Virus record (IMG/VR): IMGVR_UViG_2734482591_000017
Strand: one strand, 5' to 3'
DNA length: 4,639 bases
Source of the DNA: a virus
Taxonomy: Duplodnaviria > Heunggongvirae > Uroviricota > Caudoviricetes
This document shows positions 1 to 4,639 of the stretch, one piece after another. The notes under the pieces were generated by a model that saw nothing but the letters and a program-made list of their open reading frames with translations, was not told where the DNA came from and made no database searches. How positions within the stretch are numbered: position 1 is the stretch's first letter; every line of letters begins with the position of its first letter. Position numbers and translations under genes: made by a program.

Positions 1-127
1 GGCGGCCATCCATCCAGTCATCGGTTCGTCTGAGAATGACGTGCAACTGCGCACGCGACACCCGGAGACAACGGCTGACTAAGCTTACTCCCCATCCCCG
101 GGCAATAAGGGCGCGTGCGCTATCCAC
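1..127 (-). CDS. insD: IS2 transposase InsD (OrfB), N-terminal part only; 3' end lies beyond the window start
   Basis: GTG start at 127-125 (minus strand) gives [20 protein letters not shown]..., matching the IS2 InsD N-terminus from memory. It overlaps the insC 3' end, as expected for the -1 frameshift arrangement. Confidence 0.85.
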
Positions 128-450
128 TTTTTTGCCCGTCCATATTCAACGGCTTCTTTGAGGAGTTCATTTTCCATCGTTTTCTTGCCGAGCAGGCGCT
201 GGAGTTCTTTAATCTGCTTCATGGCGGCAGCAAGTTCAGAGGCAGGAACAACCTGTTCTCCGGCGGCGACAGCAGTAAGACTTCCTTCCTGGTATTGCTT
301 ACGCCAGAGAAATAACTGGCTGGCTGCTACACCATGTTGCCGGGCAACGAGGGAGACCGTCATCCCCGGTTCAAAGCTCTGCTGAACAATTGCGATCTTT
401 TCCTGTGTGGTACGCCGTCTGCGTTTCTCCGGCCCTAAGACATCAATCAT
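85..450 (-). CDS. insC: IS2 transposase InsC (OrfA), 121 aa
   Basis: The ORF track 85..495 contains [30 protein letters not shown]...LLPGDGE. The recognised InsC start is the internal Met (MIDVLGPEK) at 450; the stop is TAA at 87-85. Confidence 0.9.
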
Positions 451-541
451 CTGTACTCCAATGACTAGTCTAAAAACTAGTATTAAGACTATCACTTATT
501 TAAGTGATACTGGTTGTCTGGAGATTCAGGGGGCCAGTCTA

Positions 542-788
<247 letters not shown>

Positions 789-944
789 ACAATTGCGATC
801 TTTTCCTGTGTGGTACGCCGTCTGCGTTTCTCCGGCCCTAAGACATCAATCATCTGTACTCCAATGACTAGTCTAAAAACTAGTATTAAGACTATCACTT
901 ATTTAAGTGATACTGGTTGTCTGGAGATTCAGGGGGCCAGTCTA
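789..944 (-). repeat. Second, isolated copy of the IS2 left-end 156 bp (IRL plus first ~21 codons of insC); exact direct repeat of 386-541
   Basis: Base-by-base comparison: 386-541 equals 789-944 (offset 403), while flanking bases differ (385 a vs 788 c; 542 a vs 945 c). Confidence 0.85.
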
Positions 945-1028
945 CGGACATTTTCTGCCTGTGGACCAGGAAAGTGCACGGGTGCTTTCCACTCCCATGA
1001 AGCCCGGCAATCCGCGCAGATACAGTAA
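945..1028 (+). pseudogene. 3' remnant of a nin-region gene truncated by the IS2 insertion (identity unknown)
   Basis: Frame starting at 945 reads ...RTFSACGPGKCTGAFHSHEARQSAQIQ and ends in tandem stops TAATAA (1023-1028). A GGAG Shine-Dalgarno for the next gene follows at 1053-1056, which suggests a genuine gene terminus. Confidence 0.3.
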
Positions 1029-1079
1029 TAAACGAACTGACAGCAGTAAGATGGAGCGTTTCTTTTGAACAACCAGACA

Positions 1080-1322
1080 ATGACTTTTACCCCTGAACAA
1101 TTGCGTAAACACGCGCAGGAAATGCTGCGTCATGCTGAACAACTCGAAAAAACGGGCATAACAAAAGACGCTATCCGTAAAGATATGGTACCCGCGCTTC
1201 GGGAACTGATGCAGGCGAAGCATCGCGCACAGAAAGCAGTAGATGAGCTGGTGGACTGTGTGGCAGAGCTGGAAACCAGAGTCGGAAAGTTTGAAAAACT
1301 GGTGCAGGAGGTGCTGCGCTGA
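1080..1322 (+). CDS. Hypothetical small phage protein (~80 aa, predicted helical), nin-region; alternative TTG start at 1065
   Basis: ORF track 1065..1322. ATG at 1080; GGAG at 1053-1056 is better spaced for the TTG at 1065. Its stop overlaps the rusA start (TGATG at 1320-1324), indicating translational coupling. No family recognised. Confidence 0.55.
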   Translation: MTFTPEQLRKHAQEMLRHAEQLEKTGITKDAIRKDMVPALRELMQAKHRAQKAVDELVDCVAELETRVGKFEKLVQEVLR

Positions 1323-1426
1323 TGCGCCATGAGTTTATTTTACCTTATCCGCCGACGGTGAATACTTACTGGCGACGTCGTGACAACACATATTTTGTAT
1401 CAAAAGCCGGTGAGCGTTATCGCCGG
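1322..1426 (+). CDS. rusA: RusA-like Holliday-junction resolvase, 5' part only (3' end lost in the N run)
   Basis: N-terminus MRHEFILPYPPTVNTYWRRRDNTYFVSKAGERYRR parallels E. coli RusA ([36 protein letters not shown], from memory). Its position immediately upstream of Q is typical of lambdoid nin regions. Confidence 0.75.
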
Positions 1427-1676
1427 NNNNNNNNNNNNNNNNNNNNNNNNNNNNNNNNNNNNNNNNNNNNNNNNNNNNNNNNNNNNNNNNNNNNNNNNNN
1501 NNNNNNNNNNNNNNNNNNNNNNNNNNNNNNNNNNNNNNNNNNNNNNNNNNNNNNNNNNNNNNNNNNNNNNNNNNNNNNNNNNNNNNNNNNNNNNNNNNNN
1601 NNNNNNNNNNNNNNNNNNNNNNNNNNNNNNNNNNNNNNNNNNNNNNNNNNNNNNNNNNNNNNNNNNNNNNNNNNNN
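1427..1676. other. Run of 250 N (assembly gap or masked sequence)
   Basis: Directly visible. ORF-track entries spanning it are artifacts because N translates as X with no stops. Confidence 1.
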
Positions 1677-1688
1677 GCAGGTCAAAAA

Positions 1689-2543
1689 ATGAAACTGGAA
1701 GATTTACCGAAATACTACTCCCCAAAATCCCCTTGCCTGACCGATGCATCGGCCTCAACGTCAAAAGATGCGCTGAGTATCACTGATGTGATGGCCGCGC
1801 AGGGCATGACACAGAATCGGGCTGAGATGGGGTTTTCTGCGTTCCTGGGGAAAATGGGCATCAGTATGAATGACAGGGCGCGGGCAACAGAATTACTGGC
1901 AGATTATGCACTCAGTCGGTGCGATCGTGTGGCGGCGTTGAGAAAACTTCCGGCAGAAATAAAACCGGTAGTGATGCGCATTATGGCTTCGTACGCTTTT
2001 GAGGATTATGCCCGCAGCGCAGCGAGTAAAAAGCAGTGCCCTTGTTGCTATGGGGAAAAATTTATTGAAAGCGTAGTTTTTACAAACAAGGTCCAGTATC
2101 CGGATGGTAAGCCGCCGGTATGGGCAAAGTGTACGAAAGGTGTGTATCCGTCTTACTGGGAAGAATGGAAAAAAGTCAGGGAGGTGGTAAAAGTTGCCTG
2201 TCCGGAGTGTGGCGGAAAGGGTGAGGTTTCCACCGCCTGTAAGGATTGCCGTGGGCGTGGTGTCGCCATTCATCGTGAAGAGTCGGTAAAACGTGGTATG
2301 CCTGTTATCAGAGACTGCCAGCGTTGTGGTGGTCGTGGCTATGAAAGACTACCATCAACGGAGGCATTTAATGCTATATGCGAGGTGACAAACCAGATAA
2401 CACGCGCGTCATGGGAAAAAACAGTTAAGAAATTCTATGATGCGCTGGTGACTCGGTTTGATATTGAAGAAGCATGGGCTGAGCGGCAGTTAAAAAAGGT
2501 AACTAGGTTGATTTTTCCGGAATCTGTGGTAAATTCGTCATAA
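1689..2543 (+). CDS. Late-gene antiterminator Q-like protein (phage 82 / QuuQ-type) with DnaJ-like CxxCxGxG zinc-finger repeats; true start may lie in the N run
   Basis: First ATG after the gap (1689) gives a 284-aa ORF with repeated Cys motifs (CPCCYGEK, CPECGGKG, CKDCRGRG, CQRCGGRG). It lies downstream of rusA and immediately upstream of a promoter/terminator pair and phage tRNAs, the canonical Q position. Family assignment is from memory. Confidence 0.7.
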   Translation: MKLEDLPKYYSPKSPCLTDASASTSKDALSITDVMAAQGMTQNRAEMGFSAFLGKMGISMNDRARATELLADYALSRCDRVAALRKLPAEIKPVVMRIMASYAFEDYARSAASKKQCPCCYGEKFIESVVFTNKVQYPDGKPPVWAKCTKGVYPSYWEEWKKVREVVKVACPECGGKGEVSTACKDCRGRGVAIHREESVKRGMPVIRDCQRCGGRGYERLPSTEAFNAICEVTNQITRASWEKTVKKFYDALVTRFDIEEAWAERQLKKVTRLIFPESVVNSS

Positions 2544-2547
2544 CTAT
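2508..2547 (+). promoter_or_regulatory. Candidate late promoter pR' with promoter-proximal pause element (qut-like region)
   Basis: -35 TTGATT (2508-2513), 16-bp spacer, extended -10 TGgTAAATT (2527-2535). Predicted start is near 2542, followed by AACTAT at 2542-2547, a -10-like element resembling the lambda pR' AACGAT pause inducer. It overlaps the Q stop codon (2541-2543). Confidence 0.45.
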
Positions 2548-2583
2548 GGGCGTTTTATGCCTGACGTTAGAAGAGTTTCTACA

Positions 2584-2607
2584 ACCCGCCGCCGAGCGGG
2601 TTTTTTA
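2584..2607 (+). terminator. Intrinsic terminator (tR'-like) ending a short (~65 nt) leader RNA from the candidate pR'
   Basis: GC stem cccgc / gcggg (2585-2589 with 2596-2600), 6-nt loop, followed by TTTTTTATTG (2601-2610). Confidence 0.6.
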
Positions 2608-2645
2608 TTGCGGAATTAATTACGGACCGTTATTATTCTGCTCCC

Positions 2646-2721
2646 GGCCCTTTAGCTCAGTGGTGAGAGCGAGCGACTCATAATCGCCAGGTCGCTGGTT
2701 CAAATCCAGCAAGGGCCACCA
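2646..2721 (+). tRNA. ileZ: tRNA-Ile2 (anticodon CAU, presumably lysidine-modified); ileX/ileZ-like
   Basis: 76 nt with 7-bp acceptor stem GGCCCTT/AAGGGCC, D-arm GCTC/GAGC, anticodon loop CU-CAU-AA, T-loop TTCAAAT, discriminator A and encoded CCA. Very close to E. coli ileX as I recall it, so Ile2 is preferred over Met. Confidence 0.85.
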
Positions 2722-2820
2722 TCACAAACCGCCATTAGCTTATCAGGAAGAGCAGACGACACGATAACAGGGTTGTTGGTGCGGGGGCGGGTCCCCGATG
2801 GCGGTCCATTATCGGTATTC

Positions 2821-2897
2821 AGCGTTGTTAGCTCAGCCGGACAGAGCAATTGCCTTCTAAGCAATCGGTCACTGGTTCGAATCCAGTACAGCGCGCC
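2821..2897 (+). tRNA. tRNA-Arg (anticodon UCU, reads AGA/AGG); argU-like phage tRNA
   Basis: 77 nt with acceptor stem GCGTTGT/ACAGCGC (one G-U pair), anticodon stem ATTGC/GCAAT, loop CT-TCT-AA, T-arm ACTGG TTCGAAT CCAGT and encoded CCA. Confidence 0.85.
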
Positions 2898-3008
2898 ATA
2901 TTCATTCTTCCAGATTCCTTCCGGCAGAGCCTTATACTGAAATATACCTGGCTCAGGATATTGTTGAAAATATTTTATGTTTGTCAAAAATAAAAGTTCT
3001 GTTAAGTA

Positions 3009-3362
3009 TTGATTGAGTGTTTGTTATACGGTCTAATGGTTTTTTCAGCATTAAATATTTATCATTCATATGGTGTGGGTAGAGTGAATATTGATGAGGC
3101 GTCGGGGTGTTTCATCCTTAGGCAGCGTATTGATATAGTCAATGCAGCACGAGCAAAGGCCTTCAGCCGTTTGACAGTTTTGTTCTGTACTCCTGATCGT
3201 CTTTCGGGAAGAGACGTTATTATTCTGAATAGTGATGCTATACAGAGGGTTTGCGATGAGTTCATGGTTGCTAATTCAGAATTATTTGCTCTTGTTCAGG
3301 AGTACAACAGAATAGCCAGGACCTGTGGTATGGATGAACTTCGGATTACTCATCTGGGGTAG
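3009..3362 (+). CDS. Hypothetical protein, up to 117 aa; start ambiguous (TTG 3009, ATG 3036, GTG 3084), no convincing Shine-Dalgarno
   Basis: ORF track entry. It occupies the position of stxA in Stx phages but has no resemblance to Stx. Rare-codon rich (3 AGA, 3 AGG, 3 AUA). Could be non-coding or a decayed gene. Confidence 0.3.
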   Translation: MIECLLYGLMVFSALNIYHSYGVGRVNIDEASGCFILRQRIDIVNAARAKAFSRLTVLFCTPDRLSGRDVIILNSDAIQRVCDEFMVANSELFALVQEYNRIARTCGMDELRITHLG

Positions 3363-3442
3363 ATACATATCTGGATTATCACCTGTTACGGTAAAAAGTG
3401 ATTGCTTACTGTTTTTGTGAATGGCATTGCAGCAGCCGGATA

Positions 3443-3529
3443 ATGTCAGTGCTGGCTGACGGTGTGCTGGTGGCGGGTGTGGTGGTTGTTGCTTTCCCGT
3501 TGCTGAAAAAGAAAACGCCAGACTGTTAG
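3443..3529 (+). CDS. Candidate 28-aa hydrophobic mini-protein MSVLADGVLVAGVVVVAFPLLKKKTPDC (possible small membrane peptide); GTG 3398 would give 43 aa
   Basis: Read manually; below the ORF-track length cutoff. One predicted transmembrane-like stretch followed by KKK. Locally GC-rich codons (GTG/CTG/GGT) contrast with the AT-rich surroundings. Weak Shine-Dalgarno. Confidence 0.2.
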   Translation: MSVLADGVLVAGVVVVAFPLLKKKTPDC

Positions 3530-3670
3530 CCGGGTATCAGTTAGCGGGAGAAATTTTTAAATACTTCACAATTCAGGCGGTTGACTGTTGTCTGGTTTGC
3601 GGGGAGTTTGTTAAAAGAAACTGGCATGGTGAATCCCCCTGTGCGGAGGGGCAATCAGCGAGTAGGTATA

Positions 3671-3679
3671 TGGGATAAT
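3671..3679 (+). promoter_or_regulatory. Candidate extended -10 promoter element TGgGATAAT
   Basis: TG at 3671-3672, hexamer GATAAT at 3674-3679. No good -35. It would start a transcript of about 100 nt ending at the 3754-3790 terminator. Confidence 0.25.
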
Positions 3680-3753
3680 CGCGGATTCAGGTGCTGGTAC
3701 TGAATTCACCGGGAGGCACCCGGCACCATGCAATGGCACATAGCGCCACTCTC

Positions 3754-3790
3754 CAGCCCCTCTCCGGAGGGGCTGTTTATATTGATTTTG
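3754..3790 (+). terminator. Strong intrinsic (rho-independent) terminator, plus-strand orientation
   Basis: Perfect 9-bp GC-rich stem CAGCCCCTC / GAGGGGCTG (3754-3762 with 3767-3775), loop TCCG, then U-rich tail TTTATATTGATTTTG (3776-3790). Confidence 0.65.
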
Positions 3791-3807
3791 TCAGATGTGA
3801 GTAAACT

Positions 3808-3839
3808 CCTTATGGACTTTGTTGTTTTAGTCCATAAGG
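3808..3839 (-). repeat. Perfect 11-bp inverted repeat (hairpin) covering the stop codon and last codons of the minus-strand ORF
   Basis: CCTTATGGACT (3808-3818), 10-nt loop, AGTCCATAAGG (3829-3839). No clear U-tract follows on the minus strand, so it may be a 3' stabiliser or weak terminator. Confidence 0.45.
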
Positions 3840-4145
3840 ACATATTTGCAGAGTGCAACGGTTATTAAAGCATTCATTCAATACGTTATCTGTATTTGTA
3901 GGGCATTCCTGGCTATTTTTGATTGAATTCCAGAATGTTTTATTGAATGGTACTACGTTGTAAATGGTTACAGGTAGCACTTTGTTATTGAGCATGATGC
4001 CTGTGTGAGTCAGTGTAAATATACTTTCAGGAGGTAAGAAAGCATCCGATTGATACCAGATTATTAATTTTATTTTACTCCATATGACTGAAAAAGATAT
4101 TCCGCATGATGGCTGGATAACTGTATCAATCACAATCCACTTCAT
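3810..4145 (-). CDS. Hypothetical protein, 111 aa, antisense to the phage late operon; Trp/Ile/Asn-rich, no recognised family
   Basis: ORF track entry, verified codon by codon. ATG at 4145-4143 preceded by AAGGA with 6-nt spacing (plus-strand 4152-4156). Stop is TAA at 3812-3810. Six of its 13 Ile codons are AUA. Confidence 0.55.
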
Positions 4146-4185
4146 TTAGTTTCCTTGTTTATGCCTTGCTGGTGATGTTCTGAAA

Positions 4186-4212
4186 AGTATAAATGATATT
4201 TTTGAATGTAAA
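4186..4212 (-). promoter_or_regulatory. Candidate sigma-70 promoter for the 111-aa minus-strand ORF
   Basis: On the minus strand: -35 TTTACA (plus 4212-4207), 15-bp spacer, -10 TATACT (plus 4191-4186), about 40 nt upstream of the ATG. The spacer is short, so confidence is modest. Confidence 0.35.
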
Positions 4213-4405
4213 CCATAGAGCAGAATTATTTTTCTGATGTTGTTTATTGTTTATTTAAATGCAGGGTGGTTTATATCTCGTCTTGTAGTTTATCCATGCA
4301 TATCTGCTTGATAATCAGGTTTTTATTTAAGGTATGGTTTTGTGTTTTTTCTGTATTACATGTCAGGTATTTTAAAGAATTATTTTTCAGATGGTGGAAA
4401 GAACC

Positions 4406-4579
4406 ATGGCATTTAAACACTATGATGTTGTCAGGGCGGCGCCGCCGTCAGATCTTGCGGAAAAGCTGACACATAAACTGAAAGAGGGCTGGCAGCCGTT
4501 TGGTAGTCCGGTGGCCATAACCCCTTATACCCTGAGGTGTACTGGCAATAGCGGACACTACCATTTGTTCTTTTTTTAA
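4406..4579 (+). CDS. DUF1737-like small phage protein (57 aa from ATG 4406; ORF track starts at 4391), possibly the 5' part of a longer frameshifted gene
   Basis: MAFKHYDVVRAAPPSDLAEKLTHKLKEGWQPFGSP... matches the YDVVRA...LAEK...KLxEGWxPxG pattern I recall for DUF1737 proteins between Q and the lysis genes. GGTGGAAAG precedes the ATG. The ORF ends in TAA directly after a T7 run (4571-4577). Confidence 0.45.
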   Translation: MAFKHYDVVRAAPPSDLAEKLTHKLKEGWQPFGSPVAITPYTLRCTGNSGHYHLFFF

Positions 4580-4639
4580 GCAGCCATCTGATGATATTTT
4601 TCCCTGAAGGCTGCCGGGGAGATATTCCCCAGACGAGAG

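Follow-up and report, generated by a model that had tools for sequence, protein, structure and literature searches.

In Stx phages of the 933W/Sp5 type, the late antiterminator gene Q is followed by tR', a tRNA-Ile/Arg/Arg trio, cargo, an STnc100-like element, a further gene, DUF1737 and the holin gene. In Escherichia coli K-12, IraM (YcgW) is an anti-adaptor of RssB that is induced by Mg2+ starvation, and its structure has been solved (8TWD). IraL serves as an anti-adaptor of RssB and keeps RpoS stable during log phase, both in E. coli CFT073 and in Shigella sonnei (PMC4045071; Hryckowian et al. 2014). It binds RssB in two-hybrid and copurification assays; deletion of iraL lowers both the level and the half-life of RpoS in CFT073, and lowers RpoS in S. 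sonnei (PMC4045071). IraM is stress-induced, whereas IraL is active in unstressed log phase, and the two also differ in their mode of interaction with RssB (PMC4045071). The mRNA of iraL is increased by 1.6 log2 at 37 °C (PMC12890032), and a fur mutant contains more IraL (PMC7157518). The small RNA STnc100 and the PasD RNAs of EPEC lie in prophage late regions near Q (preprint 10.64898/2026.05.13.724894). One STnc100 copy is located 75 nt downstream of stx2, and STnc100 has been detected by RT-PCR in STEC vesicles (PMC12370729).

The window considered here is the whole stretch of 4,639 nt analysed from the Caudoviricetes record IMGVR_UViG_2734482591_000017. In the original prediction, the slot downstream of Q and the tRNA genes was held to carry uncharacterized AT-rich genes in the place of stx. 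The comparisons below indicate that it is, very probably, an already known moron cluster of four units, belonging to a lambdoid prophage of the CFT073 potB-island type. The features of the region are as follows.

1689-2543: Q antiterminator (Pfam Antiterm, 7e-55)
2583-2609, plus strand: tR'-like intrinsic terminator downstream of Q, a 7-bp stem (2583-2602) with five GC pairs, then TTTTATT
2646-2721, plus strand: tRNA with a CAT anticodon, Ile2-type (ARAGORN; Rfam tRNA, 72.5 bits)
2729-2808, plus strand: degenerate relic of the middle tRNA-Arg of an Ile/Arg/Arg trio (alignment with CFT073)
2822-2898, plus strand: tRNA-Arg (TCT) (ARAGORN; Rfam, 68 bits)
3084-3362, plus strand: conserved 92-aa protein, phrog_2873, GTG start at 3084
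3398-3529, plus strand: 43-aa DUF3927/TciB-like small hydrophobic protein (Pfam PF13064)
3595-3784, plus strand: STnc100 sRNA including its intrinsic terminator (Rfam RF02076)
3809-3840, minus strand: hairpin over the stop codon and 3' end of iraL (12-bp stem)
3810-4145, minus strand: iraL, encoding an RssB anti-adaptor of the IraM family, 111 aa (near-identity to CFT073 iraL)
4146-4278, minus strand: 5' UTR, transcription start site and sigma-70 promoter region of iraL, -100 to +33 (CFT073 5' RACE mapping)
4406-4535, plus strand: DUF1737 gene remnant (Pfam PF08410, 1.5e-15)
4536-4639: end of an IS600 copy (megablast, IS3-like element IS600 family transposase)

The elements originally described, namely a 117-aa ORF, a hydrophobic mini-ORF, a structured region with a terminator and an antisense 111-aa ORF, were all found in place. 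The proposed Stx-phage architecture holds for Q, the tR'-like terminator, tRNA-Ile2, tRNA-Arg and the cargo, but not for the lysis region. There are no lysis or structural genes in the window, and from approximately 4536 IS600 takes the place of the rest of the late region; in the intact relatives, CFT073 and E. coli 042, a holin/lysis cassette follows. Of the features of an Stx slot, Q and a tRNA cluster directly upstream are thus present, and the same tRNA trio occurs in phi296 and Nil3; stxA, stxB and a holin/lysis cassette directly downstream are missing from the window. No RIP or Stx-B domain is encoded by any slot ORF, in line with the claim that the slot has no Stx-like sequence, and other features account for its whole length.

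The gene for the tRNA with the CAT anticodon is identical to one annotated as tRNA-Ile by PGAP in E. coli 042 and CFT073. The relic of the middle tRNA-Arg is called by neither ARAGORN nor Rfam; in comparison with the called tRNA-Arg of CFT073, the acceptor and T-arm ends are kept and the central part is replaced. The same degenerate variant is carried by E. coli 042. An Rfam Trp_leader candidate at 2503-2609 scored 25.7 bits, below the gathering threshold of 41, and was rejected, as it represents the tR'-like terminator hairpin.

On sequence grounds, the antisense 111-aa ORF is IraL. Its closest characterized counterpart is CFT073 C_RS06710, which is c1429 and iraL, an equation of tags confirmed in the supplement of a paper; the one residue that differs is 74 (S74 here, L74 in CFT073). 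The protein matches the IraL/IraM family NF007393 of NCBIfam with 162 bits (cutoff 121) over residues 1-110 of 111, and also matches the IraM structure (PDB 8twd, E 6e-31). In published practice, a gene is assigned to iraL rather than iraM when its entire coding region is 95% or more identical to CFT073 iraL and no iraM match overlaps it (PMC4045071). With 110/111 aa identical to CFT073 IraL and 61% identity to K-12 IraM, the ORF falls on the iraL side of this division. Across 4,775 E. coli records, best-match identities fall into two sharply separated groups, approximately 1,420 lying at 95% or above and 3,329 at 60-80%. The RefSeq label 'IraM' on iraL hides a functionally distinct paralogue.

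The ORF had also been credited with its own promoter and hairpin, and both are borne out. The published 5' RACE sequence of CFT073 iraL matches at 31/32 positions and places the start at 4178 on the minus strand; read off the sequence, the -10 hexamer TATACT lies at 4186-4191 and a -35-like TTTACA at 4207-4212. From -100 to +33 the region is identical to CFT073 at 131/133 positions, the differences being confined to -1 and +31 and the hexamers unchanged; a conserved iraL promoter has been defined by at least 96% identity to CFT073 from -100 to the start codon. In CFT073, the -100 to +33 fragment together with the coding region complemented ΔiraL (PMC4045071). At the other end of the gene, the 12-bp hairpin has a free energy of -20.4 kcal/mol (z -4.33) and none of 200 shuffles folds as well; since just GUUUACU follows the stem, it can be regarded only as a putative terminator.

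From the near-identity of gene and promoter to those of CFT073, we infer RssB binding and RpoS stabilization by the window copy. With a sigma-70 promoter of its own, the gene would be transcribed whether or not the phage is induced, and IraL would bind the adaptor RssB and block delivery of RpoS to ClpXP, raising RpoS in growing cells. In many uropathogenic E. coli and in Shigella, iraL explains high RpoS during growth, as published in 2014.

The structured region is STnc100. RF02076 is matched over its full length (model positions 1-206 of 206) with 132.4 bits against a gathering threshold of 47 (E 5e-30), the terminator consists of a 9-bp stem at 3754-3775 with seven GC pairs and then a T run, and the minimum free energy is -74.6 kcal/mol (z -2.3). 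A minus-strand pseudo-CDS annotated over STnc100 by PGAP is considered spurious. The product would be a structured sRNA of approximately 190 nt, and its relationship to the Hfq-bound PasD sRNAs suggests a base-pairing regulatory role. The element lies at the same relative position in 9/10 related loci scanned. Comparison of the cargo at this junction across prophages, which the original prediction had called for, shows that the cluster recurs in CFT073 and 042 and that STnc100 is the constant landmark of the slot downstream of Q, the genes swapped around it being stx, tciAB, the 92-aa gene, nanS or iraL. This makes STnc100 a handy landmark for the annotation of such slots.

The predicted hydrophobic mini-ORF of 28 aa is present (ATG 3443), but constitutes just the last 28 residues of the 43-aa DUF3927 protein. 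This protein matches PF13064 over residues 2-43 (1.7e-27; 95.6 bits against a cutoff of 25) and the 'TciB-like' phrog_1470 (7.8e-13), and is identical to CFT073 WP_000562553.1. It would be a membrane peptide. For TciA/TciB, literature searches yielded nothing beyond P1-plasmid annotations and Trypanosoma papers on other subjects, and the Tci functional label is annotation-based.

The 92-aa (117-aa) ORF is the sole slot element without a function, and even so it is represented in PHROGs. Its frame is open upstream of GTG 3084, with an ATG at 3036 (108 aa) and a TTG at 3009 (117 aa, 3009-3362, plus strand), and ORF residues 10-117 match phrog_2873 over the full length of the profile (1-108 of 108; 3.8e-70). 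Homologues are 33-64% identical, have 91-95 aa with conserved blocks and mostly start at the position of GTG 3084. In the protein databases, from which this distribution is drawn, they occupy the Q-to-holin slot of prophages in Escherichia, Citrobacter and Salmonella; others are carried by E. coli plasmids, where they adjoin fimbrial and (type IV) pilus operons. A scan of the genome collection with the single protein gave one locus, in E. coli ECMA0423 (99%), and mEp460_ev081 is the only phage record found by tblastn to encode it. Neither Pfam, NCBIfam, PADLOC nor PDB gave a match, and a Pfam search with all 12 aligned family members (E up to 1) returned scattered noise in single members. An AF2 model based on these 12 sequences (pLDDT 91.5) predicts a helix/β-hairpin/helix arrangement; in fold comparison this is a generic helical hairpin, with no informative or toxin-like match. 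A prefoldin beta-like fold, with its two long helices and connecting β-hairpin, is no more than a candidate for it.

PGAP leaves this ORF unannotated in approximately 1,180 genomes, the Shine-Dalgarno sequence before GTG 3084 is weak in the window allele, and 46/1000 dinucleotide shuffles of the slot (4.6%) contain an ORF that long (at least 117 aa). All this would be expected if the ORF were no gene, but a frame left open by chance within a conserved non-coding leader. Such an origin is improbable. For the slot ORFs, conservation in relatives is stronger evidence than the shuffle statistics, in which two ORFs of at least 111 aa occur in 2/1000, and the divergent relatives retain both length and conserved blocks. 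Three E. coli alleles that are approximately 60% identical (the window allele and those of L006 and L007) have exactly 92 codons, no indels and the GTG start, and changes at the third codon position are about double those at positions 1 and 2. PGAP does call the ETEC6333 allele, which has an AGGAG box, and the high pLDDT was reached from an alignment of 12 sequences only. The gene is thus better regarded as real. In about one in five complete E. coli genomes the PGAP annotation lacks it, so that omics tables omit it as well; the supplement of the CFT073 temperature study passes directly from c1427 to c1429.

In the window the 92-aa gene lies directly upstream of DUF3927, with a gap of 35 nt, and in a Citrobacter prophage its homologue, located between Q and holin, has a TerB-like gene and DUF3927 beside it. 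Among the neighbours called or annotated in ETEC6333, 07-4299, Salmonella and plasmid contexts, DUF3927 is missing; the two are adjacent or near each other in the window type and Citrobacter, and an obligate partnership was rejected. The 92-aa family is small, unstudied, enterobacterial and borne on mobile elements. It could represent a new small regulator, or a factor that binds proteins, with an effect on gene expression of the host or of mobile elements, missed systematically since PGAP skips the commonest allele, although we consider this unlikely.

That the slot holds novel, uncharacterized cargo, such as a toxin, virulence factor or anti-phage system in the place of stx, might be argued from its position, which is the classical moron slot, from the Citrobacter arrangement, and from the 92-aa and DUF3927 proteins having no demonstrated function. 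This is very improbable, since iraL, which is both the largest gene and the only one with a divergent promoter, is characterized and the structured region is a catalogued sRNA. The 92-aa protein has a generic fold, and the location of its relatives beside fimbrial and pilus operons on plasmids is not suggestive of phage-specific defence. PADLOC found no defence-system match for the 117-aa, 43-aa and 111-aa proteins, and for the DUF1737 fragment gave just noise (AbiEii, E 0.012-0.03); there is no evidence for either the toxin or the anti-phage function that had been suggested. The statement that none of the ORFs matches a nameable family does not survive either, as three of the four elements are named (NF007393, RF02076 and PF13064) and iraL has published genetics. 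The content of the slot, comprising a characterized gene, a catalogued sRNA and a protein of a named family, is already known and its discovery value is little.

The known moron cluster occurs at approximately 99% identity in E. coli, and 863/5,426 complete genomes carry at least 80% of the slot; being common, it is ordinary. DNA identity is 98.1% to CFT073 over window positions 2604-4535 and 99.2% to E. coli 042 over 1677-4535, and both strains share the gene order Q, tRNAs, DUF3927, iraL, DUF1737, holin. The term cluster denotes co-location and implies no joint function of the four units. Its genes had been described as AT-rich, which applies to 2899-3083 (31% GC) and 3785-4405 (32.5%) but not to the 92-aa gene (44%) or the sRNA (55%). 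A promoter scan found six promoter-like sites against 5.0 expected from shuffles; as this is no excess, neither the 92-aa gene nor STnc100 is assigned a promoter. By analogy with lambda, the 92-aa gene, DUF3927 and STnc100 would be sense to the Q-antiterminated late transcript in an intact phage, and this transcript would run antisense through iraL.

The prophage is badly degraded and may in part be inert. IS2/IS21 fragments and IS600 form the borders of the remnant, and homology with CFT073 and 042 stops at 4535. Numbered from an in-frame ATG further upstream (4391), DUF1737 is truncated after approximately residue 48 and diverges from the intact 67-aa protein of phage vB_EcoS-640R1 after ...ITPYTL. 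These IS boundaries and the truncation, together with the degenerate middle tRNA and the lack of lysis and structural genes in the window, are what would be seen if the whole slot were inert, decaying DNA of a dead prophage, with ORFs that persist only through recent decay and nothing functional. There is little probability of this, because each of the four cargo units is complete, with 98-100% identity to its counterparts in intact prophages, and the iraL promoter hexamers are unchanged. S. sonnei has an IS-rich genome, yet loss of iraL there lowers RpoS (PMC4045071). The gene is enriched in Shigella isolates (P = 0.0001) and under-represented in EHEC/STEC (PMC4045071), and the enrichment argues for retention rather than neutral decay. 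Homology to structural or lysis proteins and untranscribed, decayed DNA had been named at the outset as counter-evidence; none of the ORFs resembles such proteins, and iraL is transcribed in CFT073 (PMC4045071). As the prophage is here a remnant of approximately 3.5 kb between IS elements, the known cluster would persist as host-domesticated cargo, with iraL the unit most likely to be under selection.

The Stx slot contains stxAB; in the window, the tRNAs are followed by the 92-aa gene, DUF3927 and then STnc100. The Stx2-converting phages in the collection share just the STnc100 segment with the window slot. In relatives of Stx phages STnc100 is followed by the sialate esterase NanS, and in the window by iraL; phi296 and JLK-2012 have NanS at the place that iraL occupies here. 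The unit formed by the 3' end of DUF3927 and STnc100 in JLK-2012 is 93.7% identical to the window. The 43-aa protein corresponds, through DUF3927 and the 'TciB-like' phrog_1470, to TciB of the TciA/TciB pair named in P1 and annotated in JLK-2012. In JLK-2012 and the Citrobacter prophage a TerB-like tciA precedes tciB; the window lacks tciA, and there the gene directly before DUF3927 is the 92-aa gene. As described for STnc100 and PasD, the window copy lies in a prophage late region near Q and is a full-length match with a terminal hairpin.

The iraL locus of CFT073 resembles the window in the sequence of the transcription start site, the promoter, the flanking elements (DUF1737 at one end, DUF3927 with STnc100 at the opposite end) and the location downstream of Q and tRNAs. 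It has three called tRNAs, an IS200C between Q and the tRNAs, and retains holin, lysis and structural genes; in the window the middle tRNA is a degenerate relic and, beyond residue 48 of DUF1737, everything has given way to IS600. K-12 IraM belongs to the same NCBIfam family, with 61% amino acid identity over 107 residues and approximately 70% identity in DNA. Its gene lies beside the e14 region and iraL in the Q-lysis slot, and both proteins block RssB-dependent degradation of RpoS.

The window is a piece of a lambdoid prophage late-regulatory region set within insertion sequences, and homology to intact relatives spans 1677-4535. Its features are as follows.

1-944, IS2 fragments and an IS21-type istB gene fragment
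1322, rusA-like start
1427-1676, masked N run
1689-2543, Q (Pfam Antiterm, 7e-55)
2583-2602, tR'-like terminator
2646-2721, tRNA(CAT), named tRNA-Ile by PGAP in identical copies
2822-2898, tRNA-Arg(TCT)
3009-3362, plus strand, 117-aa ORF
3398-3529, plus strand, small hydrophobic ORF (the 28-aa version first predicted runs from the internal ATG at 3443 onward)
3754-3775, strong terminator closing a GC-rich structured stretch
3810-4145, minus strand, 111-aa ORF (iraL), with a 12-bp hairpin across the stop codon (dG -20.4 kcal/mol, z -4.3)
from ~4536, end of an IS600 copy

All features originally described for the slot between tRNA-Arg and DUF1737 (2898-4405), where Stx phages carry stxAB, are present, and a pair of ORFs of at least 111 aa arises in just 2 of 1000 dinucleotide shuffles. 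As predicted, the slot lacks Stx-like sequence, with a Stx-like domain in none of its ORFs. The description 'AT-rich' holds for both slot ends only (31-33 % GC) and fails for the middle (44-55 % GC), and the lysis region expected downstream is not within the window, where IS600 interrupts DUF1737 after residue 48. The slot is a position where cargo genes are expected, and morons are indeed present. The original prediction of uncharacterized cargo belonging to no nameable family does not stand: the RNA belongs to a catalogued family, the mini-ORF to a Pfam family, and the principal gene is a regulator already in the literature; the slot is of low discovery value. The observation is confirmed and its interpretation only partly supported. 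The arrangement is already known and common: of 5,426 complete E. coli genomes, 863 carry the complete slot at ~99 % identity. Its one loose end is an unannotated family of 92-aa proteins.

The 111-aa ORF is iraL. Its product matches NCBIfam NF007393, 'anti-adapter protein IraM' (162 bits; cutoff 121), and the solved IraM structure 8TWD (E 6e-31), is 61 % identical to K-12 IraM, and is identical at 110 of 111 residues to C_RS06710 of uropathogenic E. coli CFT073, which is c1429, named iraL by Hryckowian et al. 2014 (PMC4045071). The published iraL 5' RACE sequence matches the minus strand at 31 of 32 positions, with the start at 4178 and a -10 box, TATACT, at 4186-4191; the promoter fragment from -100 to +33 is identical to that of CFT073 at 131 of 133 positions, differing at -1 and +31 only. 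The RACE start, the promoter and the identity to CFT073 show that what had been presented as an unknown antisense ORF, equipped with a promoter and hairpin of its own, is a gene already characterized by experiment. For the iraL segment, best-match blastn identities in 4,775 E. coli records fall into two groups (~1,420 at ≥95 %, iraL type; 3,329 at 60-80 %, iraM), in agreement with the report that iraL and iraM never overlap (PMC4045071). IraL binds RssB, and RpoS in K-12 increases in the presence of iraL plus 100 bp of upstream sequence (PMC4045071). In addition, IraL is increased in a fur mutant (PMC7157518), and iraL mRNA rises by 1.6 log2 on a shift to 37 °C (PMC12890032). Codon 74 (3924-3926, minus strand) encodes Ser here and Leu in CFT073 and E. 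coli 042 (WP_000871291.1); Leu is likewise the aligned residue in K-12 IraM.

The structured region corresponds to STnc100: the full Rfam RF02076 model, terminal hairpin included, aligns to 3595-3784 on the plus strand (132.4 bits; gathering threshold 47; E 5e-30), and this stretch folds stably (-74.6 kcal/mol, z -2.3). STnc100 is related to the Hfq-associated PasD sRNAs of EPEC prophages (2026 preprint). In Stx2 phages, a copy follows stx2 after 75 nt (PMC12370729), and in the Stx2-converting phages of the phage collection the STnc100 segment is the only part in common with the slot. It occupies the same relative position in 9 of 10 related loci scanned, all Escherichia; the two exceptions are a Citrobacter prophage and ETEC6333. 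There are five copies in E. coli 07-4299 (four in tandem at 4139-5118 and a fifth upstream at 2167-2379 of the locus) and two in phage vB_EcoS-640R1 (3165-3358 and 3634-3822). Duplicated STnc100 may be a landmark at which cargo modules recombine. Opposite STnc100, the PGAP annotation includes a pseudo CDS, 'hypothetical protein' (3614-3739, minus strand; 6717-6842 and 13269-13394 in related loci L001 and L005); this CDS matches no family and is probably an artefact stemming from the missing sRNA annotation.

The mini-ORF is DUF3927. Its 43-aa product, read from GTG 3398, matches Pfam PF13064 over residues 2-43 (95.6 bits; cutoff 25), is identical to a PGAP-annotated CFT073 protein and also matches phrog_1470, 'TciB-like', the Tci label being a phage annotation that is putative as a function.

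The 117-aa ORF matches phrog_2873 (3.8e-70) and is the sole slot element named by PHROG number alone. Relatives of its product number 20 by exhaustive HMMER search of 1.84 billion representatives and 31 by profile search, all 'hypothetical' and without Pfam domains; the family spans Escherichia/Shigella, the Citrobacter freundii complex and Salmonella. At 33-64 % identity, the diverged members have lengths of 91-95 aa and mostly begin where GTG 3084 lies (alignments A1 and A2), which makes the conserved gene one of 92 aa. Three E. coli alleles, ~60 % identical, all have exactly 92 codons, the GTG start and zero indels, with third-position differences ~2x those at positions 1 and 2; this pattern supports genuine coding. 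A confident AlphaFold model (pLDDT 91.5) predicts a helix (3-34), a β-hairpin (39-46) and a second helix (50-81). The ETEC6333 allele is called by PGAP and has an AGGAG box. RefSeq-based omics tables lack the gene because PGAP leaves the common allele unannotated. This commonest 92/108-aa allele is without annotation in ~1,180 complete E. coli genomes (3009-3362 in the window; 12663-13016 in L005, for example), and the CFT073 temperature-shift supplement passes directly from c1427 to c1429, with the 92-aa gene missing. Partial copies of the 108-aa protein lie on Shigella flexneri draft contigs of ~2.0 kb, which, taken with the IS2, IS21 and IS600 debris, is a hint of a Shigella origin for the window. 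No constant neighbour of the gene was found across the contexts compared:

Q-to-holin slot, in E. coli (the window, CFT073, 042, mEp460, ETEC6333 and 07-4299)
Citrobacter, with a 95-aa homolog, TerB-like gene, DUF3927 and holin, in that order
Salmonella
Rep3 plasmids, beside PapB/usher fimbrial operons
End of a type IV pilus operon
Short metagenome contig, 3' of a GerE-type regulator gene

Distant members (~33-34 % identity) lie outside prophages (loci L015-L018, 5001-5276; L020, 4001-4285), some on Rep3 plasmids, where a chaperone-usher fimbrial operon regulated by PapB is ~1.2 kb away, and one directly 3' of a cluster of type IV pilus genes.

At the left end, 1-944 is nested or rearranged IS debris. 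The same IS2 end occurs twice (~407-543 and ~790-944), flanking the 3' end of the IS21-type istB, and one N lies at 543. The whole 1-1330 arrangement of debris and adjoining phage DNA is present in no complete E. coli genome of the collection. An 85-aa ORF in 1065-1426, immediately 5' of the rusA-like start, has only sub-threshold Pfam matches, several of them to coiled-coil families. The rusA-like start has only ~80 % DNA identity to rusA of CFT073 and 042, and identity is 98-99 % from 1677 on; the N-masked run may conceal a mosaic junction. Q has a C-terminus (2510-2543) 11 codons longer (…KKVTRLIFPESVVNSS) than that of CFT073 (…KKVTR), with two residue differences elsewhere. Between the two called tRNAs, 2729-2808 is a degenerate middle tRNA-Arg of an Ile/Arg/Arg trio, not called by ARAGORN or Rfam; its acceptor and T-arm ends are as in the called tRNA-Arg of CFT073 and its central part is replaced. 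The same variant occurs in E. coli 042.

In a lysogen, iraL would be transcribed from its own sigma-70 promoter and IraL would sequester RssB, such that RpoS would escape ClpXP and accumulate during growth, as shown elsewhere. STnc100 would be a terminated sRNA acting by base pairing. By analogy with lambda, in an intact phage Q-modified polymerase from upstream of the tRNAs could read through the STnc100 terminator, and would then cross iraL antisense before DUF1737 and the lysis genes. This late function is lost in the window's genome, in which the lysis region is replaced by IS600 and Q itself is intact, and the cluster probably persists as domesticated cargo.

Comparison across relatives reveals that the slot is a mosaic. 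CFT073 and E. coli 042 carry tRNAs, the 92-aa gene, DUF3927, STnc100, iraL (minus strand), DUF1737 and holin; JLK-2012 carries tRNAs, tciA, tciB, STnc100, an esterase and holin. In phi296 and Nil3, STnc100 comes straight after the tRNAs, with NanS next in phi296, and in vB_EcoS-640R1 the two STnc100 copies are followed by iraL. Across the layouts compared, the 92-aa gene and DUF3927 occupy the space from the tRNAs to STnc100, which is the position of stx2 in Stx2 phages (PMC12370729), and iraL takes the position of the sialate esterase in phi296 and JLK-2012.
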